DNA of 64,000 bases from Pseudomonadota bacterium (GCA_021801255.1 JAJYYH010000039.1:2914-66913); one strand, 5' to 3'; shown: positions 3,920-16,875, counted from the first letter of the stretch. Numbers and translations: made by a program. The notes: generated by a model not told the origin, from the letters alone.

Positions 3920-4729
3920 ATGATCGAGAGCAAGACCACCCTGCCGGCGGAGGCTGGCGGCATCGAGATCACGCGCTTCAACGCGCTGCGCCACGGTATC
4001 CTGTCCCGGTACACGATACTGCCGTGGGAGGATGCCGGCGAATACCGGGCGCTTGTCTCGGCGCTGGTGGCGGAGCATCGGCCACTGGGACCGACCGAGG
4101 AACATCTGGTCGAGGAACTGGCCGGCATTCTGTGGCGCAAGCGCCGCTTGCGGTTGGCCGAGGCTGCCGCCCACCGGCGCGGTCTCAACGGCACGCTGGC
4201 CTCGTACCGGGAGACGGTGAAGATGGCGCTGGTCCATCTCGACGCCGCCGACCAGACCGTGCGGGTGATCGATGCCATCCGCGCCACCGATGCCGACACC
4301 GACGACGACATCCGGGATATTCTTGACGGCAAAGCGATGGTCCGTCGTGCCCTCGACCTGCTCGGCTCCCGGCGCAACGACGCCTATGAAGCCGCGCTGG
4401 CAGCGCTCCGAGAGGACACGCAAGCTTGGTGGGCGGACGTGCTGGCGCACGCTCCCGGCGAGCAGACGGAGGACGAACCGCCCGCCACGGCCGACGCAGA
4501 GGGGTTGCGCCGCTTCTTGGAAGGCGAGGTGCTGCCCTGGCTGGAGACTCGCAAGAAGGAACTGGCGAATCGGCCGCTGATCCGCGAGCAGGCGTTCGGC
4601 GAGGCGCTGGACCCCGACAAGCTGGAACGGCTGGGCCGCTACGAGGTGCATCTCGACCGCAAACTGGAACGGATGCTCGCCATGCTGCTGCGCCTCAAGG
4701 ACCTGCGGCAAGCGACGGTTGAACCCTGA
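3920..4729 (+). CDS. Hypothetical protein (helical, acidic)
   Basis: ATG 3920 is preceded by AAGGAGA 7 nt upstream. An alternative ATG at 3899 would overlap the previous gene. Confidence 0.5.
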   Translation: MIESKTTLPAEAGGIEITRFNALRHGILSRYTILPWEDAGEYRALVSALVAEHRPLGPTEEHLVEELAGILWRKRRLRLAEAAAHRRGLNGTLASYRETVKMALVHLDAADQTVRVIDAIRATDADTDDDIRDILDGKAMVRRALDLLGSRRNDAYEAALAALREDTQAWWADVLAHAPGEQTEDEPPATADAEGLRRFLEGEVLPWLETRKKELANRPLIREQAFGEALDPDKLERLGRYEVHLDRKLERMLAMLLRLKDLRQATVEP

Positions 4730-4830
4730 TCCGTTTGGCAAAATAGGCGACCAGTGGCAGGGCGATTGAGTACGCCATTGCCTATCCGGCCAGATTGGCC
4801 AAAACTCGCCACATGCGGCGCGAGGACCAG

Positions 4831-5049
4831 ATGAGAACTCTGGCGGCAACAGACGCCAAGTACGGCTTCGGCCGGCTGATTGATCTAGCCCGCACGGCGC
4901 CGGTGATGGTCGCCAAGCATGGGCGTCCCGTCGTCGTGGTGATGGCGGTCGAGGAGTTCGAGCGGCTGACGGCGCGGGACGCGCCCGTGACTGCCGCCGG
5001 TGAGGCATACGGCGGACATACGAACGGGTCGGAACTGGCGGACGACTGA
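4831..5049 (+). CDS. Phd/YefM-family type II antitoxin (orphan, no cognate toxin downstream)
   Basis: MRTLAATDAKYGFGRLIDLARTAPVMVAKHGRPVVVVMAVEEFERL matches the Phd/YefM N-terminal fold signature. The next gene, hsdR, starts 6 nt after the stop. The start could also be 4795 or 4813. Confidence 0.7.
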   Translation: MRTLAATDAKYGFGRLIDLARTAPVMVAKHGRPVVVVMAVEEFERLTARDAPVTAAGEAYGGHTNGSELADD

Positions 5050-5054
5050 CCGGC

Positions 5055-7502
5055 ATGGACAAGCGCGCCCTCAGCGAGCGGGACATCTGCACCAAGTTCA
5101 TCACGCCCGCCTTACAGCAGGCGGGCTGGGATGAAATGGCGCAAATCCGAGAGGAAGTGAGTTTCACCAAGGGCCGCATCATCGTGCGCGGGAAGCTGGT
5201 CACACGCGGCCAGGCCAAGCGCGCCGACTACATCCTCTATTTCAGGCCCAACATTCCGCTGGCGCTGATCGAGGCGAAGGACAATACCCACAGCGTCGGC
5301 GACGGCATGCAGCAGGGGCTTGAATACGCCACGACCCTCGACATCCCCTTCGTGTTCTCGTCCAACGGCGACGGGTTTGTGTTCCATGACCGCACCGGCG
5401 CGGGCGGCGCGACCGAGACGAACCTCGCGCTCGACACCTTTCCCTCGCCAGCCGATCTCTGGGGACGCTATCGCGCATGGAAGGGGCTTACAGCCGAAGG
5501 CGAGCAGATCGTCCTTCAGGACTATTTCGACGACGGCAGCAGCAAGGCCCCGCGCTATTACCAGGTCAACGCCGTCAACGCGGCGATCGAGGCCATCGCT
5601 AAGGGCCGCGACCGCATCCTGCTGGTCATGGCGACCGGCACAGGCAAGACCTACACCGCCTTTCAGATCATCTGGCGGCTGTGGAAGGCCGGGCGCAAGA
5701 AGCGCATTCTTTTCCTGGCCGACCGCAACGTGCTGATCGACCAGACGATGGTCAACGACTTCCGGCCGTTCGGCTCGGCGATGGCGAAGCTGTCCACCAA
5801 CGCCAAGACCATCGGGCGCGACGACGGGAGCAGCATCGAACTGACCACGGCCATTGATAAGAAGCGCCGCATCGACACGGCCTACGAGGTCTATCTCGGC
5901 CTCTATCAGGCGATCACCGGCCCGGAGGAACGGCAAAAGCTGTTCCGCGAGTTCTCGCCCGGTTTCTTCGACCTGATCGTGATCGACGAGTGCCATCGGG
6001 GCAGCGCCGCCGAGGATTCGGCGTGGCGCGAAATCCTCGACTATTTCTCGTCTGCCACCCAGATCGGCATGACCGCTACGCCGAAGGAGACGAAATACGT
6101 CTCCAATATCGCGTATTTCGGCGAGCCGGTTTACACCTATTCCCTGAAGCAAGGCATCCACGATGGCTTCCTCGCGCCCTACAAGGTGGTCAAGGTCCAT
6201 ATCGACCGTGACGTGGAGGGCTACCGGCCCGAGAAAGGCCAGCTCGACCGCGAAGGCGAGGAGGTGGAGGACCGCATCTACAACACCAAGGACTTCGACC
6301 GCACGCTGGTGCTGGACGATCGCACCAAGCTGGTCGCGAGCAAGGTCACGGAGTTCCTGAAGGAGAGCGGCGACCGGTTCCAGAAAACCATCGTCTTCTG
6401 CGTCGATCAGGAACACGCGGCCCGGATGCGGCAGGCACTCGTCAATGAGAACGCCGATCTTGTCGCCGAGAATCACCGCTACGTCATGCGCATCACCGGC
6501 GGTGACCCCGAAGGCCAGGCCGAACTGGACAACTTCATCGACCCCGAATCCCGGTACCCCGTCCTCGTCACCACCTCGCGCCTCTTGTCCACTGGCGTCG
6601 ATGTGCAAACCTGCCGGCTGATCGTGCTCGACCGCGAGGTCGGCTCGATGACCGAGTTCAAGCAGATCGTCGGGCGTGGCACCCGCGTCCACGAGGACAC
6701 CCGGAAATTCTACTTCACCCTGATCGACTTCCGGGGCGCCACCAGCCATTTCGCCGACCCCGAGTTCGACGGCGAACCGGTGCAGATTTACGAGCCGGGA
6801 GAGGACGATCCCATTACCCCGCCCGATGTACCGCCGACCGGCGAAGATGGCGAGACGCTGCCGCAACGGCCCGGGGATGACGAAACCACCGTCGATGGGC
6901 CACCCGATGTCACCTTCCCGCCGGTCGGCGGCAAGGTAAAGAAGATTTATGTCGATGGCGTCGGGGCCACCATCATCGCGGAACGGGTGGAGTACCTCGA
7001 TGAGGACGGCAGGCTCGTCACCGAGTCGCTGCGCGATTTCACGAAGAAGGCGCTGAAGAAGCGTTTCGCCAGCCTCGACAACTTCCTGAAGCGCTGGAAG
7101 GCGGCGGAGCGCAAGCAAGCGATCGTGGAGGAGTTGGAGGCCGAGGGTCTGCCGCTCGATCTCGTGGCCGAGGAACTGGGCAAGGACCTCGATCCGTTCG
7201 ATCTGATCTGCCATGTCGCCTTTGACCAGAAGCCGCTCACCCGCCGCGAACGGGCGGAAAACGTAAGAAAGCGTGACGTTTTCACCAAATACGGCGATCA
7301 GGCCCGCGCCGTGCTCGACGCGCTGCTCGCGAAATATGCCGATGAGGGCGTGCTCGACCTCGACGACAGCAGTATGCTGAAGATCGCCCCGTTCAACCGG
7401 ATGGGCAGCGTTGTCGAACTCATCAGGGCATTCGGCGGGAAAGACGGCTTCGAGCAGGCTATCCACGAATTGCAATCAGCCCTTTATCAGGAATCCGCGT
7501 AA
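5055..7502 (+). CDS. hsdR: Type I restriction enzyme R subunit
   Basis: N-terminal ICTKFITPALQQAGWD nuclease-region signature; Walker A MATGTGKT; DEAH box VIDECHRG; motif VI QIVGRGTR. 815 aa. Confidence 0.95.
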   Translation: MDKRALSERDICTKFITPALQQAGWDEMAQIREEVSFTKGRIIVRGKLVTRGQAKRADYILYFRPNIPLALIEAKDNTHSVGDGMQQGLEYATTLDIPFVFSSNGDGFVFHDRTGAGGATETNLALDTFPSPADLWGRYRAWKGLTAEGEQIVLQDYFDDGSSKAPRYYQVNAVNAAIEAIAKGRDRILLVMATGTGKTYTAFQIIWRLWKAGRKKRILFLADRNVLIDQTMVNDFRPFGSAMAKLSTNAKTIGRDDGSSIELTTAIDKKRRIDTAYEVYLGLYQAITGPEERQKLFREFSPGFFDLIVIDECHRGSAAEDSAWREILDYFSSATQIGMTATPKETKYVSNIAYFGEPVYTYSLKQGIHDGFLAPYKVVKVHIDRDVEGYRPEKGQLDREGEEVEDRIYNTKDFDRTLVLDDRTKLVASKVTEFLKESGDRFQKTIVFCVDQEHAARMRQALVNENADLVAENHRYVMRITGGDPEGQAELDNFIDPESRYPVLVTTSRLLSTGVDVQTCRLIVLDREVGSMTEFKQIVGRGTRVHEDTRKFYFTLIDFRGATSHFADPEFDGEPVQIYEPGEDDPITPPDVPPTGEDGETLPQRPGDDETTVDGPPDVTFPPVGGKVKKIYVDGVGATIIAERVEYLDEDGRLVTESLRDFTKKALKKRFASLDNFLKRWKAAERKQAIVEELEAEGLPLDLVAEELGKDLDPFDLICHVAFDQKPLTRRERAENVRKRDVFTKYGDQARAVLDALLAKYADEGVLDLDDSSMLKIAPFNRMGSVVELIRAFGGKDGFEQAIHELQSALYQESA

Positions 7503-7506
7503 GCCC

Positions 7507-8963
7507 ATGTCTGTCCGCACCACCGTCAAATCGATCCAGGATATCATGCGCCAGGATACCGGCGTCGATGGCGATGCCCAGCGCATCAGCCAATTGTGCT
7601 GGATGTTCTTCCTGAAAATCATCGACGATCAGGATCAGGAACTCGAACTCCTCGACCGCAATTACCGCTCGCCGATTCCGGTGGAATACCAGTGGCGCAC
7701 CTGGGCGGCGAACCGCGAGGGGATCACGGGTGAGGAACTCATTGCCTTCGTCAACGGCGAGTTGTTTCCGGCGCTCAAAAACCTTTCAGTCTCGCCCAAG
7801 CCCGGCGACCGCCGCCGTGTCGTGCGCGACGTGTTCGAGGATGCCTACAACTACATGAAATCCGGCCAACTCATGCGGCAGGTGGTGAACCGGATCGATG
7901 ATGTCGATTTCAACAACCTCGTTGAACGCCAGCATTTCGGCGACATCTATGAGCAGATTCTCAATGATCTGCAATCAGCCGGCAACGCGGGCGAGTACTA
8001 CACGCCGCGCGCTGTCACAGCTTTCATGGCCGACCGGATCGACCCGCACCCCGGGGAACTTCTGCTCGATCCCGCCTGCGGCACCGGCGGCTTCCTGACC
8101 AGCGCCATCCGCCACATGCGCGACCGCTACGTGAAGCGGCCCGAGGACGAGCAGAAGATGCAGGCCGCGTTGCGCGCGGTCGAGAAGAAGCAGCTTCCGC
8201 ACATGCTCTGCGTCACCAACATGCTGTTGTACGGCATCGAGGACCCCGGCTTCGTCCGCCACGACAACACGCTGGCGCGCCCCTATATCAGTTATACGCA
8301 GTCCGACCGGGTGGACATCGTGCTGACCAATCCGCCCTTCGGCGGGCGCGAGGAAGACGGGATCGAGTCCAACTTCCCGCAGCATTTCCGCACGCGGGAG
8401 ACCGCGGACCTGTTCCTCGCCCTCATCATCCGGCTGCTGAAGCCGGGCGGGCGCGCCGCCGTGGTGCTGCCGGACGGCACGCTGTTCGGCGAGGGCGTCA
8501 AGACCCGGCTCAAGGAACATCTGATGGAGGAATGCAACCTCCACACCATCGTCCGCCTGCCCAATTCCGTCTTCCGGCCCTATGCCTCGATCGGCACCAA
8601 CCTGCTGTTCTTCGAGAAGGGCACGCCGACCAAGGACATCTGGTTCTACGAGCACCGGGTGCCGGAAGGCCAGAAAGCCTATTCGATGACCAGGCCGATC
8701 CGCCTGGAGCATCTGCAAGGCTGCATCGACTGGTGGGGCGGCAAGGCTCGGAAGGGCCGCGAGGAAACCCCGCAAGCCTGGAAAGTGACGGCCGATGAGG
8801 TGAAGGCGCGCGGCTACAACCTTGACATCAAGAACCCGCATAGCGTGGCGGATGACCACGGCGACCCCGAGGCGCTGCTCGCAGCCTCAACGCCGCCGAG
8901 GCCGAGACGGCGAGCTTGCGCGAGCAACTCAAGACGATCCTTGCCGAGGCGCTGCCGCGATGA
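7507..8963 (+). CDS. hsdM: Type I R-M DNA methyltransferase M subunit, apparent frameshift near 8881-8886
   Basis: AdoMet motif LDPACGTGGF and catalytic motif NPPFGG. After ...GDPEALLA the start frame turns into Arg/Ser/Pro-rich junk that runs to 9309. The frame offset by 2 nt reads SLNAAEAETASLREQLKTILAEALPR-stop (TGA 8961-8963), a typical HsdM C-terminal helix. Confidence 0.85.
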
Positions 8964-9011
8964 CATCCATGACACGGGTGGACAAACGCCCGCTCATGCC
9001 CGGAGGCCGCC

Positions 9012-9428
9012 ATGCATCCCGCCATTGCTGAAAAGCGCGAGACGTTGGCCGCACTCTGCCGCCGCTACGGCGTGGTTCGCCTGGAGGTATTCGGCTCGGC
9101 CGCGCGTGGCACGGATTTCGACCCCGCAAGCAGCGACGCGGATTTCCTCGTCGAGTTCGACAAGGCCGGCGGCCTATCTCCGCTCGACCAGTTCTTCGGC
9201 CTCGCCGAGGCGCTGGAAACGCTGCTCGGCCGCCCGGTCGATCTCGTCGAACCATCGGCCATCAGGAACCCCTATCTTCGCGCCGCGATCAACCGGTCGA
9301 GAGAGTTGATCCACGGCTATGCGACTGTCGATCATCCCCAGGTATGGCGGATCGTGCGGGAGTCGCTTCCCGGCCGTCGCGAGACGGTTGCCGCCCTCTT
9401 GGCCGAAATGGGCCCGCCCGACCCATGA
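9012..9428 (+). CDS. MntA-like nucleotidyltransferase antitoxin fused in frame to the C-terminal ~40 aa of a HepT (DUF86/HEPN) toxin
   Basis: NTase motifs FGSAARGT...DADFLVEF in residues 1-~95. The tail is SRELIHGYATVDHPQVWRIVRESLPGRRETVAALLAEMG, which matches the HEPN R-x(4-6)-H..Y end of DUF86 proteins. The remaining ~80-100 aa of a HEPN domain is absent. The stop overlaps the hsdS start (ATGA). Confidence 0.75.
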   Translation: MHPAIAEKRETLAALCRRYGVVRLEVFGSAARGTDFDPASSDADFLVEFDKAGGLSPLDQFFGLAEALETLLGRPVDLVEPSAIRNPYLRAAINRSRELIHGYATVDHPQVWRIVRESLPGRRETVAALLAEMGPPDP

Positions 9429-11146
9429 ACGCCGAACGTCTGCTCGCCCATTACCACCGCATCGCCGACGCCCCGGACGCCATCGCCCGGCTGCGGCGGT
9501 TCATTCTCAACCTCGCCGTGCGCGGCAAACTGGTGCCGCAGAACCCTAACGACGAGCCGGCGGCGGAGTTGCTGAAGCGGATTGCGAGGGAGATTCCGGC
9601 CTCAAAGGGCGGACGTTCCTGGACAGGCCCGATGGCATACGATGTGCCGAAGGGTTGGGTCTGGATACGCCTCGGCAGACTGGTTGCACACTCGGACGCG
9701 GGATGGAGCCCGAAAACCGAAGATTTTCCGCGAAGTGGCGATGAATGGGGCGTCCTGAAAGTTAGCGCCGTTTCATGGGACAAGTTCCGTCCATGGGAAA
9801 ACAAGCAGGTATTGCCGGGAACTGAACCGAGGACTCAAGCTGAGGTGAAGCAAGGAGATTTCCTGATTTCGAGGGCCAATACGGCTGAATTGATTGCTCG
9901 CGCCGTTCGCGTCGAAGACCATCCATTCAAGCTCATGATGAGCGACAAGATTGTGCGCCTTCATCTGAGCGCGAACTGCGACCACCGCTTCGTGTGGATC
10001 GTCAATAATTATGCGGATTTTGCAAGAGAGCACTACGTACACCACGCATCTGGCGTAAGCCCGTCTATGAAAAATGTTTCACGAGACGTTATCTTGAACC
10101 TCCCCTTTCCCCTCCCACCCCTCGCCGAACAGCACCGCATCGTCGCCAAGGTCGATGAATTGATGGCGCTGTGCGACCGGCTGGAGGCGGCGCGGAAGGC
10201 GCGGGAGGCGACGCGCGACCGGCTGGCGGCGGCCAGCCTCGCCCGCCTCAACGCCCCCGATCCCGACACCTTCCCCGACGATGCCCGCTTCGTCCTCAAC
10301 ACCCTCCCGGCCCTCACCGCCCGCCCCGACCAGATCAAGCAGCTCCGCCAAACCATCCTCAACCTCGCCGTGCGCGGCAAACTGGTGCCGCAGGACCCAA
10401 ACGACGAACCGGCATCGGAATTGTTGAAGCGGATCGCCAAGGAGAAGGCGCGGCTGGTGAAGGCGGGGGAGATAAGACCAGACCGACCATTGTCGATGAT
10501 CGAGCAAGATGATTTTCCGATGAGCGTGCCGATCGGATGGGCCTTGGCTCGGTTGGCAACGATTAGTCTTCGAATACACTACGGATTCACGGCTTCCGCT
10601 GATTTTGCTTTAAAAAATGTTCGTCTGCTGCGCATCACAGACATTCAAGACAACGCTGTTGACTGGCCCTCTGTCCCTGGGTGCGTGATAGACGCTGGTA
10701 ACGTCGATCAGTACAAAATAGAAAAAGGAGACATTTTAATCGCTAGAACAGGAGGGACGATCGGAAAAACCTTCCTCGTGCGGGATGCCCCTGTAACAGC
10801 AGTGTTTGCTTCATATCTGATACGAGTACAGGGCACGCGACACGTCTTCGACGAGTATTTGAAGTTGTTCTTGGAGTCACCACTCTACTGGACTCAGTTG
10901 CGCGACGGCGCAAGGGGAACAGGTCAGCCAAACGTCAATGGGCACACGTTAGGAATGTTGATCGTTTCCCTCCCACCCCTCGCCGAACAGCACCGCATCG
11001 TCGCCAAGGTCGATGAACTGATGGCGCTGTGCGACCGGCTGGAGGCGAGCCTCGCCACCGCCGCCGACACAAGCCGCCGCCTGCTCGACGCCCTTCTCGT
11101 CGAGGCGCTGGCGCCGGCCGAATCCAAACTGGAGGCGGCGCAATGA
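9425..11146 (+). CDS. hsdS: Type I R-M specificity subunit
   Basis: Two variable target-recognition regions of lower GC (about 9650-10080 and 10480-10960) alternate with duplicated conserved regions (LNLAVRGKLVPQ.PNDEPA.ELLKRIA twice; LPPLAEQHRIVAKVDELMALCDRLEA twice). Confidence 0.95.
   Translation: MNAERLLAHYHRIADAPDAIARLRRFILNLAVRGKLVPQNPNDEPAAELLKRIAREIPASKGGRSWTGPMAYDVPKGWVWIRLGRLVAHSDAGWSPKTEDFPRSGDEWGVLKVSAVSWDKFRPWENKQVLPGTEPRTQAEVKQGDFLISRANTAELIARAVRVEDHPFKLMMSDKIVRLHLSANCDHRFVWIVNNYADFAREHYVHHASGVSPSMKNVSRDVILNLPFPLPPLAEQHRIVAKVDELMALCDRLEAARKAREATRDRLAAASLARLNAPDPDTFPDDARFVLNTLPALTARPDQIKQLRQTILNLAVRGKLVPQDPNDEPASELLKRIAKEKARLVKAGEIRPDRPLSMIEQDDFPMSVPIGWALARLATISLRIHYGFTASADFALKNVRLLRITDIQDNAVDWPSVPGCVIDAGNVDQYKIEKGDILIARTGGTIGKTFLVRDAPVTAVFASYLIRVQGTRHVFDEYLKLFLESPLYWTQLRDGARGTGQPNVNGHTLGMLIVSLPPLAEQHRIVAKVDELMALCDRLEASLATAADTSRRLLDALLVEALAPAESKLEAAQ
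9503..9590 (+). repeat. hsdS conserved-region direct repeat, copy 1 (partner 10355-10440)
   Basis: Includes an identical 36-nt run, ctcaacctcgccgtgcgcggcaaactggtgccgcag, present in both copies. Confidence 0.9.
10111..10189 (+). repeat. hsdS distal conserved-region direct repeat, copy 1 (partner 10969-11047)
   Basis: 79 nt, cctcccacccctcgccgaacagcaccgcatcgtcgccaaggtcgatgaa(t/c)tgatggcgctgtgcgaccggctggaggcg, with 1 mismatch between copies. Confidence 0.95.
10355..10440 (+). repeat. hsdS conserved-region direct repeat, copy 2 (partner 9503-9590)
   Basis: See partner; flanking codons are also similar. Confidence 0.9.
10969..11047 (+). repeat. hsdS distal conserved-region direct repeat, copy 2
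   Basis: 78/79 identical to 10111-10189. Confidence 0.95.
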
Positions 11147-12297
11147 CCGGCGCGCCGGTCGATCCCCATCTGCTGCGCTGGGCGCGGGAACGGGCCGGGC
11201 TGGAGCCGGCCGATCTGCTCCACCGCTTCCCCAAGCTGGAGGAATGGGAGACGGGCGCGCGACAGCCCACGCTCCGGCAGTTGGAGAGCTTCGCCCACGC
11301 CGTCCACGTGCCGGTGGGCTACCTGTTCCTGCCCGCGCCGCCCGACGAGAAGCTGCCGATTCCCGATTTCCGCACCATGGCGGGGCGCCCGGTGCGGCGG
11401 GTCAGCCCCAATCTGCTCGATACGCTCTACGCCTGCCAGGAACGGCAGGGCTGGTACCGCGAATTCGCGGTGGTGACCCACGCGGCCAAGGCGCCGTTCG
11501 TCGGCAGCCTGACCACCGAAACGCCGGTCGCCGAGGCGGCGCGGGCCATGGGCGCGGCGCTGGGCTTCGATCTCGACGCGCGCGCGGCCTGCCGCACCTG
11601 GGAAGAGGCGCTGCGGCTATTCATCGGCCAGGCCGACCGCGCCGGAATCCTGGTGATGGTCAGCGGCGTGGTGTTGAGCAACAACCGGCGCAGACTCGAC
11701 CCAGACGAGTTTCGCGGCTTCGCCTTGGCCGACGCCCTGGCGCCACTGGTCTTCATCAACGGCGCCGACACCAAGGCCGGGCAGATGTTCACCCTCGCCC
11801 ACGAGCTTGCCCATCTGTGGCTGGGCGCCTCGGCGTTGTCCGACACCAGTCCGGCGATCATGGGCGGGCACCGGCGGGAAGAGGTGTGGTGCAACGCCGT
11901 GGCGGCGGAACTGCTGGTGCCGCTGGATGCCGTGCGTGCGGCACTTGTCGAAGACGAGGCGCTCGACGCGACGTTGCACCGGCTGGCACGGCGCTTCAAG
12001 GTCAGCACCCTGGTGATTCTGCGCCGCCTGCTCGACGCGGGCGCGCTCGACCGCGCGGGCTTCGATGCGGCATGGGGCGCCGAATTGGATCGGCTGCGCC
12101 GGCTGGCGCGGGATGGCGCCGACGGTGGCGACTTCTACCGCACCACGCTGTCCCGCGTCAGCCGCCGGTTCGCCCGCGCCCTGGTGGAAAGCACGCTGGA
12201 GGGCCAGACGCTTTATCGCGACGCCTTCCGCATGCTGGGGGTGGCGAGGACCGAGACCTTCAATACCATCGGCCGCGAGGTGGGGGTGATGCTTTGA
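11143..12297 (+). CDS. XRE-like HTH + ImmA/IrrE (COG2856/DUF955) zinc metallopeptidase
   Basis: ATG 11143 overlaps the hsdS stop (ATGA). N-terminal HTH-like LLRWARERAGLEPADLL...TLRQLESFAHAVHVPVGYLF. HEXXH motif in TLAHELAHLWLG. Confidence 0.8.
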   Translation: MTGAPVDPHLLRWARERAGLEPADLLHRFPKLEEWETGARQPTLRQLESFAHAVHVPVGYLFLPAPPDEKLPIPDFRTMAGRPVRRVSPNLLDTLYACQERQGWYREFAVVTHAAKAPFVGSLTTETPVAEAARAMGAALGFDLDARAACRTWEEALRLFIGQADRAGILVMVSGVVLSNNRRRLDPDEFRGFALADALAPLVFINGADTKAGQMFTLAHELAHLWLGASALSDTSPAIMGGHRREEVWCNAVAAELLVPLDAVRAALVEDEALDATLHRLARRFKVSTLVILRRLLDAGALDRAGFDAAWGAELDRLRRLARDGADGGDFYRTTLSRVSRRFARALVESTLEGQTLYRDAFRMLGVARTETFNTIGREVGVML

Positions 12298-12809
12298 CCC
12301 GCTACCTGCTCGACGCCAACATCTTCATTCAGGCCAAGAACCTGCATTACGGCTTCGATTTCTGCCCGGCCTTCTGGGATTGGCTGATCGCTCGGAACAA
12401 GGCCGGCATGGTGGCCAGCATCGAGAAGGTGGGGGACGAACTCCAGGCCGGCGGGGATGATCTTTCGACCTGGGCGGACCAGCGCGGGCGCGGGTTCTTC
12501 ATGCCGCCCGATGATGCCGTCCTGCCCGCATTGCGGCAAGTCAGCACCTGGGCGACCGGCCAATCCTATGAACCCGCCGCCATCGCCACCTTCTTGCAGG
12601 TCGCCGATTACTGGCTCCTCGCCCAGGCGCTGGCCCACGGCTTCACCATCGTGACGCATGAGGTGCCGTCCGAATCGACCCGCAAGATCAAGATTCCCAA
12701 TGCCTGCATCGGTCTCGGGATCGCCTGTCTGAGCCCCTACGAGATGCTGCGCCGTGAACGCGCACGCTTCGTGCTGGGCGGTGCATCATCGAGGCCCCAA
12801 AATGGCTGA
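12294..12809 (+). CDS. DUF4411-family PIN-like protein (usual partner of ImmA/IrrE peptidases)
   Basis: TTG 12294 overlaps the upstream stop (TTGA). (M)TRYLLDANIFIQAKNLHYGFDFCPAFWDWL is the characteristic DUF4411 N-terminus. Only the last 171 codons of tracked ORF 11244..12809 are judged real. Confidence 0.7.
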   Translation: MTRYLLDANIFIQAKNLHYGFDFCPAFWDWLIARNKAGMVASIEKVGDELQAGGDDLSTWADQRGRGFFMPPDDAVLPALRQVSTWATGQSYEPAAIATFLQVADYWLLAQALAHGFTIVTHEVPSESTRKIKIPNACIGLGIACLSPYEMLRRERARFVLGGASSRPQNG

Positions 12810-12940
12810 AGCCGCCCAGGCGAACCGGGACGGCCTCGAACGCTCCTCCTACGCATGGCAGGTGAGACCTGCTTCATATGCCGCGCTTGATGCCGAGAAT
12901 CAACGAATTCCGTATGCTGGCCGTGGCGGGACAGACTGAC

Positions 12941-13798
12941 ATGCCCGCCTTCACCCGCTATATCGGCATCGACTATTCGGGCGCGGAAACGCCGTCCGCC
13001 AGCCTGAGGGGCTTGCGCGTCTACCAGACCGAAGGCACCACACGGCCCGTCGAGGTGCCGCCGCCGCCCAGCCGGCGCACCTATTGGACCCGCAAGGGCA
13101 TCGCGGAATGGCTGGTGGAGACGCTGGCCGAGGACGTGCCGACGCTGGTCGGCATCGATCATGGTTTCTCGTTCCCGCTGCGCTATTTCGAGGTTCACCG
13201 CCTGCCGCCCGACTGGCCGGCATTCCTCGACGATTTCCAACGCCATTGGCCGACTGATGAGGACAACAGCTACGTCGATTTCGTGCGCGACGGTTCCGCC
13301 GGCAACGGGGCCGCGCGCATGGGCCATGCACGCTGGCGGCGGCTGACCGAGGAACGGGCCGGCGGCGCCAAATCGGTCTTTCATTTTGACGTGCAGGGGA
13401 CGGTCGCGAAATCCACCCATGCCGGCCTTCCGTGGCTGCGCTTCATGCGCCGGCAATTGGGCGCGCGCGTGCATTTCTGGCCGTTCGACGGCTGGGACAT
13501 TCCGGCCGGCCGCTCCGCCATTGCCGAGGTCTATCCGGCGCTGTGGAGCCGCAGCTTCGCCCGCGAGGAACGCACCGCCGACCAGCACGACGCCTTCAGC
13601 ATCGCCGCCTGGCTGTCGCGCGCTGGCCACGACGGCACCCTGGCCGCGTTCCTGAAGCCAGACCTGACACCGCCCGAGCGCACCGTGGCCCAGGTCGAGG
13701 GCTGGATACTGGGCGTGCCGGGCTTGATCCGGGCCGACGGCGAGCGCAACGATTCAAAAGGCGCCGCTTGCAATCCGCTAGCGTCAAGTTTACACTAA
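12941..13798 (+). CDS. Uncharacterised protein (possible RNase H-like/ASKHA-like fold)
   Basis: Starts MPAFTRYIGIDYSGAETP. There is a second LVGIDHGFSF motif and a conserved-looking C-terminus QVEGWILGV. It sits between the DUF4411 gene and the recombinase. The fold assignment is a guess. Confidence 0.5.
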   Translation: MPAFTRYIGIDYSGAETPSASLRGLRVYQTEGTTRPVEVPPPPSRRTYWTRKGIAEWLVETLAEDVPTLVGIDHGFSFPLRYFEVHRLPPDWPAFLDDFQRHWPTDEDNSYVDFVRDGSAGNGAARMGHARWRRLTEERAGGAKSVFHFDVQGTVAKSTHAGLPWLRFMRRQLGARVHFWPFDGWDIPAGRSAIAEVYPALWSRSFAREERTADQHDAFSIAAWLSRAGHDGTLAAFLKPDLTPPERTVAQVEGWILGVPGLIRADGERNDSKGAACNPLASSLH

Positions 13799-13803
13799 AC
13801 AGT

Positions 13804-15423
13804 ATGGCAAAGACACCGAAGCCCACACCCGCCGATCCCGCCCGCAAACAGGCGGTGATCTATGCTCGCGTCTCCTCGAAGGAGCAGGAGAAAGAGGGCT
13901 TCTCGATCCCCGCGCAATTGAAACTGCTGAAGGACTACGCCTCGGCCAACGGCTTCGCGCTCGCCCAGGAATACGTGGACGTTGAGACCGCCAAGCACAC
14001 GGGGCGCACCGCCTTCGGCGAGATGATCGCCTATCTGAAGGTCCATCCGGCCATCCGCGTGCTGCTGGTCGAGAAAACAGACCGGCTCTACCGCAACCTC
14101 AAGGACTGGGTGACCATCGACGAGTTGGACATCGAAATCCACTTTCCAAAGGAAGGGGTGGTGCTGTCGCGCGACTCGCGATCGTCGGAAAAGTTCATGC
14201 ACGGCATCAAAGTGCTGATGGCGAAGAACTACATCGACAACCTGTCCGAGGAGGCGCGCAAGGGCCAGCAGGAAAAGGCCGAGCAGGGCATCTGGCCGAC
14301 CAAATGCCCGCTGGGCTACCGCAACGCCGTCGGCCCCGACGGCAAGAAGATCATTGTCACCGATCCGGCCGTGGCCCCCGTCATCACCAAGATGTTCCAG
14401 CGCTACGCCACCGGCCAATACTCGTTGCAAGAGGTGGCGCTGATGGCGCACGGCGACGGCCTGGCCTACCGCAAGAGCGGCGCCAAGGTTCCGGTCAGCA
14501 GCATCCACAAAATCCTGCACAACCGGCTCTACACCGGCTGGTTCGAGTGGAAGGGCAAGCTGATCCAGGGACGCCACGAGGCGCTGGTCACGATCGATCT
14601 GTGGGAGCGGGCGCAGGATGTGCTCGCCGGCCGCTTCGCCAAGAAGCATCGGCGCGTCACCCACGATTTCGCCTTCTCCGGCCTGATGACCTGCGCCCAT
14701 TGCGGCTGCTCGATCGTCGGCGAGATCAAGAAGCAGCGCTACGTCTACTATCACTGCACCGGTTATGCCGGAAAAAGCGAGGGCACGCCCGGCACCTGCC
14801 ATCGCAAATATGTCCGCGAGGAAGTGCTGGAGCAGCAGTTCACCGAGATGCTCGGGCGCCTGCGCTTCGATGACGAGGTGCTGGCCTGGGTGCGGGATGC
14901 CCTGCGCGCCAGCCATGCCGACGAACGCCGCGACCACGAGGAAGCCATCGCCCGTCTGCGGGCCGAGCACAAGCGGCTCGGCGACCGGATCAACGCCATG
15001 TATATCGACAAGCTGGATGGCAAGATCGGCGGCGACTTCTACGACCAGTTCGCCGGCCAATGGCGGGAGGAACAGGCCCGCTGCCAACGGGAGATCGACT
15101 GCCACGAATCCGCCGAGCAGTCTTACATGGACGACGGGATCAGGATTCTCGAACTGGCGCAGAACGCCCAGCGCCTGTTCGCACGCCAGGAACCGCGCCA
15201 GAAAAGGCGCCTGCTCAATTTCGTGCTATCGAACTGCATCTGGGACGATGGAAAGATCACCCCGACCTTCCGTCAACCCTTTGATCTGTTGACGGAAACC
15301 ACCGCCATCGCTGCGCGCCAGGAGGCGGCGACAGTAGCCAATTCGGCGAAAAGTGAGATTTGGCTGGGGGACCTGGATTCGAACCAAGGCTGCCCGGGTC
15401 AGAGCCGGGAGTTCTACCGCTAA
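13804..15423 (+). CDS. Large serine recombinase (resolvase/invertase catalytic domain + recombinase domain + zinc ribbon + coiled coil)
   Basis: Catalytic-Ser motif AVIYARVSSKEQEKEGFSIPAQ. Zinc-ribbon Cys cluster CAHCGCSIVG...YVYYHCTGY. Long helical C-terminal region. The last 63 nt are antisense to tRNA-Gln. Confidence 0.9.
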   Translation: MAKTPKPTPADPARKQAVIYARVSSKEQEKEGFSIPAQLKLLKDYASANGFALAQEYVDVETAKHTGRTAFGEMIAYLKVHPAIRVLLVEKTDRLYRNLKDWVTIDELDIEIHFPKEGVVLSRDSRSSEKFMHGIKVLMAKNYIDNLSEEARKGQQEKAEQGIWPTKCPLGYRNAVGPDGKKIIVTDPAVAPVITKMFQRYATGQYSLQEVALMAHGDGLAYRKSGAKVPVSSIHKILHNRLYTGWFEWKGKLIQGRHEALVTIDLWERAQDVLAGRFAKKHRRVTHDFAFSGLMTCAHCGCSIVGEIKKQRYVYYHCTGYAGKSEGTPGTCHRKYVREEVLEQQFTEMLGRLRFDDEVLAWVRDALRASHADERRDHEEAIARLRAEHKRLGDRINAMYIDKLDGKIGGDFYDQFAGQWREEQARCQREIDCHESAEQSYMDDGIRILELAQNAQRLFARQEPRQKRRLLNFVLSNCIWDDGKITPTFRQPFDLLTETTAIAARQEAATVANSAKSEIWLGDLDSNQGCPGQSREFYR

Positions 15424-15434
15424 ACTATCCCCCA
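15361..15434 (-). tRNA. tRNA-Gln (anticodon CUG)
   Basis: Manual cloverleaf of the minus strand: acceptor TGGGGGA/TCCCCCA (U1-A72, typical of bacterial tRNA-Gln), D arm GTT..AAC, anticodon stem CCCGG/CCGGG with loop CT-CTG-AC, T arm CTTGG-TTCGAAT-CCAGG, discriminator G, encoded CCA. Confidence 0.9.
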
Positions 15435-15507
15435 ACGCATCCTCGAGCCTTCTACCGCGCGGTGATGCGAGCGACAAGGGTGGTTGCGACCAGCCGGGTT
15501 CGGCCCG

Positions 15508-16875
15508 CTAGCGGGGCTCGGCGCGCGCCACCGGGGTGAGGCGGGAGAGGCTCGCGAGGGCGGCAAGCCCGGCCGCGAGGGTGGCGAGTGCCAGCGCCAG
15601 TTGCGGCCCGCGCGCCGGCGAGATCGCGAAGGTCAGGGCGACCAACGCCGCACCCACGGTCTGGCCGAGCAGCCTTGCGGTCGCCAGCATCCCGCTCGCC
15701 CCCCCGCTCCGCTCGCGCGGCGCCGCGGTCAGCATGGCGCGGTTGTTTGGCGAGTTGAAAAAGCCGAACCCCGCCCCGCACAGCATCATGCGCCAAACGA
15801 CATCGGCCGGGCTCGGCTCGGGCGGCAGGAAAGTGAGTAGGGCGAGCCCGGCGGCCATCATCGCCAGTCCGATGCCGCCCAGCGTTCCCGCGGCATAGCG
15901 GTCGGCGAGGCGGCCGGCGAAGGGTGCGACGACGGCGACGGCGACCGGCCAGGGGGTCATCAGCAATCCCGTTCGCACCTCGCCCCAGCGCAGTGTGTTC
16001 TCAAACAGAAAAGGCAGCGAGACGAAAGCCAGGCTCTGTCCGGCGAAGGCAGCGATCGAGGTCGCGACCGAGAGCGCGAACAGCGGAATGCGCAGCAGAT
16101 CGACGGGCAGCATCGGCGCGGTCTGGGCCAGTTGCCGGACCACCAGCCAGGCGCCGAAGCCGAGCGCGCCCGCCAGTTCCGCGCCAACCACCAGACCCGC
16201 CGCGCCATGCCCCAGCCCGTCGATGCCGATGATGAGGAGGCCGAAGGTCAGCGCGTTCAGCGTGGCGCTGGAAAAATCAAATTTCTGCTCCGAGTGCGGG
16301 GTTTTTGGCAGTGCCCTGGCGGCAACCGCGAGCGCCACCAGGCCGAGCGGCACATTGATGGCGAACAGCCATTGCCAGGGAGCAATGGAGAGGATGCCGG
16401 CGGCAACCGTCGGGCCGACCGCCGCCGAGGTCGAGGCCACCATGGCATTGAGCCCGAGACCGCGGCCGATCAGCCGGCGCGGATAGATGAAGCGCACCAG
16501 CGCGCCGTTGACGCTCATGATCCCGGCGGCGCCGAAACCCTGCAGCACACGGGCGAGCGTCAGCATCGGCAGGGTGTGCGAGAGCGCGCAGGCGAGCGAG
16601 GCCAGGGTAAAAACCCCGAGCCCGGCCCAATAGACCCGCCGGTAGCCGCGCCGCTCGCCGAGCGCGGCGAGCGGCAGCAGCGAGACGGTGACGGCGAGCT
16701 GATAGGCGTTCACCACCCAGACCGCGCTGGCGGGGTCGGCATTGACGTCGCGGGCGATGGTGGGCAGCGCGACATTGGCGATGGCGCCGTCCATCACCGC
16801 CAGCGTCAGGCCAAGCCAGATGGTGAGGGCGCCCCAGGTGCGTTGCGGCAGCGGCAGCCCGTCGGCACTCTCCAT
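15508..16875 (-). CDS. MFS transporter (drug:H+ antiporter-like)
   Basis: Starts MESADGLPLPQRTWGALTIWLGL...; multi-TM profile; MFS-like LGERRGYRRVY loop. The upstream 500 codons of tracked ORF 15508..18381 are antisense to the amidase gene and were rejected. Confidence 0.85.
   Translation of the reverse strand: MESADGLPLPQRTWGALTIWLGLTLAVMDGAIANVALPTIARDVNADPASAVWVVNAYQLAVTVSLLPLAALGERRGYRRVYWAGLGVFTLASLACALSHTLPMLTLARVLQGFGAAGIMSVNGALVRFIYPRRLIGRGLGLNAMVASTSAAVGPTVAAGILSIAPWQWLFAINVPLGLVALAVAARALPKTPHSEQKFDFSSATLNALTFGLLIIGIDGLGHGAAGLVVGAELAGALGFGAWLVVRQLAQTAPMLPVDLLRIPLFALSVATSIAAFAGQSLAFVSLPFLFENTLRWGEVRTGLLMTPWPVAVAVVAPFAGRLADRYAAGTLGGIGLAMMAAGLALLTFLPPEPSPADVVWRMMLCGAGFGFFNSPNNRAMLTAAPRERSGGASGMLATARLLGQTVGAALVALTFAISPARGPQLALALATLAAGLAALASLSRLTPVARAEPR

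Follow-up and report, generated by a model that had tools for sequence, protein, structure and literature searches.

The last genes of a type I restriction–modification (R-M) operon in a 64,000-nt stretch of DNA from a Pseudomonadota bacterium (GCA_021801255.1 JAJYYH010000039.1:2914-66913; here called the window, with positions counted from its first letter) include a pair that encodes a 384-residue metallopeptidase of the M78 family and a PIN-like protein of the DUF4411 family. We consider it probable that the two form a toxin–antitoxin module of the VapBC52 type, which travels as cargo at the 3′ end of a mobile R-M operon of the EcoEI type and is coupled in translation to the specificity gene, hsdS. 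Systems of this kind are already known, since a homologous one has both structures and a mechanism, and the window pair is a member of a distinct and very abundant clade. What makes it noteworthy is that this branch of the family habitually resides inside type I R-M operons, to which it is translationally coupled. The two genes are as follows.

11143-12297, + strand: HTH–Peptidase_M78 gene for the VapB52-like antitoxin/sensor, 384 aa (Pfam Peptidase_M78, 5.8e-16)
12294-12809, + strand: DUF4411 gene with a TTG start, for the VapC52-like PIN toxin (Pfam DUF4411, PF14367, 2e-53)

Relationship of the pair to VapBC52

Profile searches with Pfam bear out the families that an initial annotation of the window had proposed, the DUF4411 match spanning profile positions 1-159 of 159. 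Its description of the first product as a helix-turn-helix (HTH) domain fused to an HEXXH protease stands as regards the protease, for which Peptidase_M78 lies above threshold; at the N terminus the Pfam match, to HTH_31, was sub-threshold only. A sensor/effector or toxin–antitoxin arrangement had also been suggested, and this agrees with the homology of both proteins to the antitoxin VapB52 and the toxin VapC52 of Mycobacterium tuberculosis. In a search of the Protein Data Bank (PDB) sequences, the peptidase protein retrieved 9vzy_A (E 2e-20, residues 6-350 against 2-358, about 31% identity) and the DUF4411 protein retrieved 9vzy_D and 9vzz_A (E 2e-9, about 29% identity). Entries 9VZY and 9VZZ are crystal structures of VapBC52 (Rv2515c/Rv2514c), published together with a mechanism in Nucleic Acids Research in June 2026 (PMC13273310), so that the further remark that the gene pair has no experimentally defined mechanism has to be withdrawn.

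VapC52 is a DUF4411 PIN tRNase that cuts anticodon or variable loops; it inhibits growth and is neutralised through direct binding by VapB52, and its overexpression shields M. smegmatis from phage D29 (PMC13273310). VapB52 consists of three domains, namely an N-terminal HTH, a middle M78 peptidase with an HTH and a helical C-terminal domain, and it engages a toxin dimer in a 1:2 complex; the N-terminal domain is indispensable for this contact, and the C-terminal domain blocks the active site of the toxin (PMC13273310). Single-stranded DNA (ssDNA) induces an HEXXH-dependent self-cleavage of VapB52 near a conserved FR motif, by which the N-terminal domain is removed; in the latent state the zinc is liganded by a Cys ‘switch’, C229, as in CapP (PMC13273310). 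The pair had already been predicted to be a three-component toxin–antitoxin system in 2009 (PMC2701414) and in 2017 (PMC5499597).

In VapBC52 as in the window pair, the gene for a large antitoxin (about 385-415 aa) precedes that for a DUF4411 PIN toxin; also common to both are the N-terminal HTH, the M78 zinc site of HEXXH plus Glu, the (D)FR linker and the four acidic residues of the PIN domain. In the peptidase protein the zinc site (H220-E221-x-x-H224 and E247) is invariant in the aligned homologues, and the linker P72-I73-P74-D75-F76-R77-T78, invariant in alignment A2, aligns with the DFR of VapB52; in the DUF4411 protein D7, E49, D105 and E122 are invariant in 73 homologues. The AlphaFold2 (AF2) model of the peptidase protein has a predicted local distance difference test (pLDDT) score of 69.5, and loop 232-242 is present in it at low confidence. 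Foldseek matched this model to CapP (7T5T, 7e-4), PprI with ssDNA (8SLN), PrpR (6CZ6/6D2S) and IrrE (3DTE/3DTI), and matched the N-terminal domain to BswR (4O8B) and C.Csp231I (4JCY); the same list of structural neighbours was reported for VapB52 (PMC13273310).

The differences lie in the control region and in the genomic setting. The Cys-switch residue of VapB52 is an invariant Ser in the window clade, and the C-terminal region of the window protein is shorter and not detectably similar. VapBC52 is a stand-alone chromosomal locus, whereas the window pair is translationally coupled to the genes of a type I R-M operon, within an island that bears a recombinase gene. The 1:2 complex, the ssDNA-induced self-cleavage and the cleavage of tRNA are known only for the M. 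tuberculosis proteins, the window clade being known from sequence.

Gene coupling and conservation of the pair

The start of the M78 gene overlaps the hsdS stop (ATGA at 11143-11146, with the hsdS TGA at 11144-11146 and the ATG at 11143) and the start of the DUF4411 gene overlaps the stop of the peptidase gene (TTGA at 12294-12297, with the stop at 12295-12297 and the TTG at 12294); both junctions, which the initial annotation had reported, can be read directly in the sequence. The same is true of a nucleotidyltransferase gene of the MNT type that lies between hsdM and hsdS, whose stop overlaps the hsdS start (ATGA 9425-9428). A scan of 4000-16000 for promoters and terminators gave no signal above shuffled expectation, which neither supports nor excludes internal promoters, and the three overlaps (MNT/hsdS, hsdS/M78 and M78/DUF4411) are therefore the only positive evidence of co-expression. 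With overlapping stop and start codons and no terminator- or promoter-like signal above chance, the view of the pair as the tail of the R-M operon is upheld.

A scan of one genome per species yielded 80 loci, at 67-86% identity in the two proteins, and the M78 gene stands directly upstream of the DUF4411 gene in 79 of them, in keeping with the recurrent pairing that had been proposed. A 4-nt NTGA overlap of peptidase stop and DUF4411 start is kept at the window's position in 75 of 81 loci (ATGA 36, TTGA 21, GTGA 14), and this lends support to the unusual TTG start in the window. The loci come from Alpha-, Beta- and Gammaproteobacteria, Chloroflexota, Verrucomicrobiota, Acidobacteriota, Gemmatimonadota, Desulfobacterota and other groups; identities this high in both proteins across distant phyla imply that the genes have moved horizontally, often and in recent times, while purifying selection on them was strong. 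Searches of the protein collection, each capped at 8000 candidates, gave no fewer than 7939 relatives of the DUF4411 protein and 8000 or more of the peptidase protein, and contigs identical to that of the window occur in at least 11 metagenome samples. A peptidase protein identical to that of the window bears the name Acidiphilium, and the window probably derives from an alphaproteobacterium like it.

More distant pairs, of about 40% identity, retain the two-gene arrangement on Enterobacter, Sinorhizobium and Gordonia plasmids, where they adjoin TIR, AbiEii or relaxase genes. Relatives of the pair are found altogether on 46 plasmid records, half of them conjugative, and in only 2 of 50,697 records of phage genomes; the scarcity among phages led us to drop a role in prophage immunity. 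Whatever genes lie beside it, the pair is passed on whole.

Embedding in type I R-M operons

The defence context that had been proposed for the pair is borne out by its neighbourhoods, for which genes were called in the 80 loci, their proteins clustered and the cluster representatives checked with Pfam. Of the species-level loci, 47 are well flanked, with 5 kb or more to either side. In 28 of these an hsdM or hsdS gene precedes the pair on its own strand, placing it inside a type I R-M operon, and in 24 of the 28 hsdR also follows downstream; about 40% of the well-flanked loci are without R-M genes. The usual layout is hsdM-(Fic or HEPN-like)-hsdS-(Abi_C)-M78-DUF4411-(Abi_C)-hsdR, with an hsdR of the HindI-like type (T1RH-like_C, 1e-127). 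Coupling can be seen on both sides of the pair, the hsdS stop and M78 start sharing a 4-nt overlap in about 19 loci and the DUF4411 stop overlapping or abutting the hsdR start (-4 or -1) in about 17. Coupled in this way on two sides, such operons make a tractable system in which to ask if layered defences merely travel together or signal to each other.

The HindI-type operons that hold the pair often also hold an Abi_C-domain gene adjoining it (among L003-L080, for instance L014:2585-3322, L045:1811-2905 and L080:6643-7068), and Fic or HEPN-like (NTase_sub_bind) genes are found between their hsdM and hsdS. With Abi_C, Fic and HEPN-like genes co-occurring in this way, several accessory genes of defence type are nested in one operon.

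Between loci the median identities are 70% for hsdM, 66% for hsdR, 69% for M78 and 75% for DUF4411 (r ~0.47), and 34% for hsdS, as expected for a specificity subunit. We considered many independent insertions into R-M operons and rejected them, given that hsdM and hsdR co-diverge with the pair. Clear involvement is seen for no more than two R-M families. In a neighbour-joining tree of M78 and DUF4411 the HindI-type embedding extends over the whole tree, the loci lacking R-M genes are scattered, and the window forms one nested clade with L001, a Defluviicoccus metagenome-assembled genome whose genes likewise run hsdR-hsdM-hsdS-M78-DUF4411, at 82-86% identity. In the simplest history the pair entered a HindI-type operon in an ancestor, was lost or relocated several times and was transferred once to an operon of the EcoEI type, the type found in the window; there the pair is again located directly after hsdS.

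Proposed mechanism

We propose the following mechanism, by analogy with VapBC52, for how the window pair might act. The DUF4411 protein would be a PIN-fold, Mg-dependent RNase that, judging by homology, most likely cuts the anticodon or variable loop of tRNA. The 384-residue protein would serve as antitoxin and sensor in one, its N-terminal HTH domain holding the toxin dimer while its IrrE/CapP-like Zn-peptidase domain stays latent until triggered. The trigger would most likely be single-stranded or damaged DNA that arises in phage infection, upon which the peptidase would cut its own chain at the conserved DFR linker. The freed toxin could then stop translation, with abortive infection or growth arrest as the outcome. 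In such a model the module would form a second layer of defence behind the R-M system and might protect the cell against phages, as well as making the island costly to lose.

Several observations weigh against this model. The position of the Cys switch is taken by Ser233, which is invariant in 34 and 44 homologues in two alignments, and because of this replacement both latency and trigger may differ from those of VapB52 and CapP. Over its last 35-55 residues the protein shows no sequence resemblance to the C-terminal domain of VapB52, which covers the active site of the toxin in the VapBC52 complex; the alignment ends at residue 350 of 384, and a search of the PDB with the C-terminal 55 residues did not retrieve 9VZY and gave only chance matches to orotate phosphoribosyltransferase. 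AF2 also models this part poorly, as three short helices (341-379) at pLDDT 40-63. Protection against D29 was seen on overexpression of the toxin alone, and VapC52 together with VapB52 gave none (PMC13273310). The association with R-M genes is partly non-independent, as the pair diverges in step with the HindI-type operons, the two forming a single unit, and the R-M system of the window may not be fully functional on account of a frameshift at the C terminus of hsdM. Lastly, the DUF4411 protein has no match among the PADLOC models at E <= 0.1, RmrT included. Lacking the Cys switch thought to keep such peptidases latent, this abundant clade constitutes a natural test of how the peptidase sensor is regulated.

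Comparison with other known systems

A similar named defence system is RosmerTA (RmrT/RmrA), a Zn-peptidase antitoxin with a toxin that defends against phages (Millman et al. 2022, doi 10.1101/2022.05.11.491447). A PADLOC analysis of the locus, which had been recommended, gave matches for one half of the pair: the peptidase protein matches the RmrA models (5e-14 to 6e-2, mostly over the core 190-305, with two spanning 32-304) and the capP model (6e-13), while the DUF4411 protein matches nothing, as stated above. RosmerTA and, on our reading, the window pair are alike in being two-gene toxin–antitoxin systems with an HTH–Zn-peptidase antitoxin and differ in the toxin, RmrT in the one and DUF4411 in the other; the pair would not be called RosmerTA, since PADLOC holds no model that matches DUF4411. 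NCBIfam likewise has no model for DUF4411, and among its models the peptidase protein matches only the spr1629 antitoxin, at 12.6 bits against a cut-off of 335.

CapP/CapH of the cyclic-oligonucleotide-based antiphage signalling systems (CBASS), IrrE(PprI)/DdrO and ImmA/ImmR share the M78/IrrE peptidase fold with the window protein (Foldseek 7T5T, 8SLN, 3DTE). In these systems ssDNA or DNA damage activates the peptidase, which cleaves an HTH protein of the XRE type. Their substrate is a separate repressor and their output transcription, whereas in the window protein the HTH is fused to the peptidase and the proposed output is release of a toxin. CapP also possesses the Cys switch that the window protein lacks.

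A parallel in position is PrrC, the anticodon nuclease encoded in the EcoprrI type I R-M operon. PrrC is almost exclusively embedded in type I R-M systems (doi 10.1101/2024.01.29.577857). In loci related to the window the module likewise has hsdS on one side and hsdR on the other, and anticodon loops of tRNA are the expected target of its effector; the proteins are, however, unrelated, and the module brings an antitoxin of its own and is not confined to R-M operons. Neither protein of the pair has a Pfam or PADLOC match to an ABC-ATPase or PrrC-type nuclease domain, and the resemblance to PrrC and RloC is positional and functional only.

Alternative explanations

The toxin–antitoxin architecture would also suit a pure addiction module, one that stabilises the island or plasmids by post-segregational killing and has no direct anti-phage role. 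The plasmid-borne relatives, the large serine recombinase in which the window's island ends and the frequent horizontal transfer indicated by identities of 70-86% across several phyla all fit such a role. Nevertheless, we find it doubtful: post-segregational killing classically needs a labile antitoxin, whereas this one is large, presumably stable and equipped with a protease that depends on a signal. Defence genes (R-M, Abi_C, Fic, HEPN/MNT) make up the overwhelming majority of the neighbours, and CapP and RosmerTA, to which the pair is related, have their roles in defence against phages.

A more ambitious and, to our mind, unlikely model would make the whole clade a dedicated accessory of type I R-M systems, placed ancestrally between hsdS and hsdR and later within a second R-M family. 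With the Cys switch lost, its trigger would be the condition of the R-M complex or the DNA that restriction produces, rather than free ssDNA alone. If this were true, the pair would be a self-contained alarm for restriction failure or restriction products, one that turns immunity at the level of DNA into abortive infection at the level of tRNA.

As a further alternative, the pair might be a PrrC-like guardian that is wired to the R-M complex, fires once an anti-restriction factor of a phage disables or perturbs the enzyme or once restriction yields DNA fragments, and then cuts tRNA as a back-up, like PrrC in the EcoprrI operon. The module occupies the operon position of prrC (hsdM-hsdS-X-hsdR) and is coupled on both sides in many loci; its embedding looks ancestral for the entire clade, the move from a HindI-type to an EcoEI-type operon again ended after hsdS, and the homologous effector VapC52 is a nuclease of tRNA anticodon loops. 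We regard such wiring as quite unlikely, though, given the large share of well-flanked loci that have no R-M genes and the plasmid pairs located beside TIR, AbiEii or relaxase genes instead. Furthermore, VapBC52 of M. tuberculosis works with no R-M partner, the module has its own sensor-antitoxin, and the slot after hsdS accepts unrelated cargo in sister elements and may be a mere insertion hotspot.

That the pair regulates the R-M operon, or excision of the island upon DNA damage, in the manner of ImmA/ImmR, IrrE/DdrO or an R-M controller and with DUF4411 as an accessory nuclease, is most improbable: its N-terminal domain does resemble the R-M controller C.Csp231I and the DNA-binding domain of ImmR, the proteins IrrE and ImmA are regulatory proteases and a recombinase gene is nearby, but the pair stays together whatever its neighbours, its PIN catalytic residues are invariant, and the homologous VapC52 inhibits growth and is neutralised by direct binding. 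The VapBC52-type module carried as cargo is the reading that we consider best supported, and the element that carries it is described below.

The R-M island and ORF3

The remaining features of the island and its surroundings are listed here in order.

4795-5049, + strand: open reading frame (ORF) for an antitoxin of the Phd/YefM type (match 1.9e-10), ending 6 nt before hsdR
5055-7502, + strand: hsdR of the EcoEI-like family (Pfam ResIII 1e-44, EcoEI_R_C 7.5e-36, HSDR_N)
7507-9309, + strand: hsdM, N6 methylase (Pfam N6_Mtase 7e-72, HsdM_N)
9012-9428, + strand: MNT-type nucleotidyltransferase gene (Pfam NTP_transf_2 2.6e-11, Polbeta 8.6e-8), called in contig L168
9425-11146, + strand: hsdS, specificity subunit of 573 aa (Pfam Methylase_S in two stretches; PADLOC Specificity_I 1.5e-147)
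12810-12940, no strand: non-coding gap of 131 nt between cargo and backbone gene, seen in the sequence
12941-13798, + strand: ORF3, backbone gene, its start matching the N terminus of the family (MPAF...)
13804-15423, + strand: large serine recombinase (Pfam Resolvase, Recombinase, Zn_ribbon_recom), 6 nt past ORF3

The element of the window (5055-15423) is made up of hsdR-hsdM-hsdS, a variable slot and the ORF3-recombinase unit, and the serine recombinase is the probable mobility gene of the island. ORF3 had been put forward as a possible third component of the defence module. That it is a real and uncharacterised gene stands; as a partner of the pair it was rejected, for among the 80 DUF4411 loci it recurs in L013 only, where it comes after hsdR. 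Its place is in the conserved backbone of the element, outside the toxin–antitoxin system. The family to which it belongs counts at least 7995 homologues in 2767 clusters at 50% identity, with no Pfam domain.

The surroundings of ORF3 were compared in five genomic contexts and 80 metagenome loci (L081-L165). It invariably closes a run of genes on one strand, in most cases with its start codon next to or overlapping the stop of the gene upstream (L081, L082, L084, L094, L127 and L135); in the window this distance is the gap of 131 nt, which is consistent with insertion of the pair as cargo. The gene that precedes it varies widely, from hsdS (L135) and HindI-type hsdR (L013, L103, L127, L154) to HNH_2 genes (L084, L088, L094, L104), a PDC-S64 candidate (L082, L149) and a 418-aa unknown protein (L081). 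A large serine recombinase gene begins 6-9 nt past the 285-aa form of ORF3, in the window and also in L081-L089, L094, L095, L103 and L147-L150, and the form of about 260 aa is without one. The slot itself is empty in L135, and in other elements (L081, L082, L084, L094) it holds PDC-S64, a DrmC-like PLD nuclease with an HNH protein, two HNH_2 proteins or the 418-aa unknown. It looks like a hotspot for defence cargo on a mobile R-M island. The element of the window type thus points to both a cargo hotspot and a large unannotated protein family, ORF3, that merits a separate study.

A hint of the biochemical role of ORF3 comes from its invariant residues (D11, D73-H74, D150, E196 and D214-x-H216-D217) and the β-β-β-α-β order of its N terminus, which provide a weak lead towards an RNase H-like nuclease. 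An AF2 model (pLDDT 55) gave only non-significant RNase H-like matches in Foldseek (E >= 0.1), and a profile search of the PDB sequences retrieved nothing. Longer members of the ORF3 family carry HNH_2, DUF6946, HD_4, MazG-like, Phd or GNAT domains, which are either true fusions or the result of run-on gene calls.

The R-M genes of the window

Pfam and PADLOC identify hsdR, hsdM and hsdS, which lie in one unit with gaps or overlaps of at most 4 nt except between hsdM and the MNT gene, in a window whose G+C content is 67.8%. The hsdR product is 82% identical to that of L001, in which the gene order is the same. Relative to contig L168, which is 99.97% identical, hsdM carries a 1-nt deletion near 8883 (CGCCAGCC vs CGCAGCC) that shifts its frame after about residue 459 of 485 and extends the ORF across the next gene to 9309; the stop of the intact version would fall at 8963, so the deletion replaces the last ~27 residues. 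The deletion version is present in contigs of at least 11 metagenome samples and may represent an altered methylase C terminus or a recurrent assembly error.

The MNT gene is a second accessory gene embedded in this operon. Its C-terminal part gives a weak HepT-like match, and no separate HEPN partner was seen for 9012-9428. No obvious toxin gene adjoins the Phd-like ORF at 4795-5049 either; its place is taken by a Fic gene in the sister element L082 and by a PIN gene in L084.

The hsdS frame is open from 9344, and its start most likely lies at 9425, the position called in the identical contig L166. Two pairs of direct repeats occur within the gene (9502-9593/10354-10445, 88% identical, and 10106-10189/10965-11047, 98%), presumably the duplicated conserved regions that flank its two target-recognition domains.

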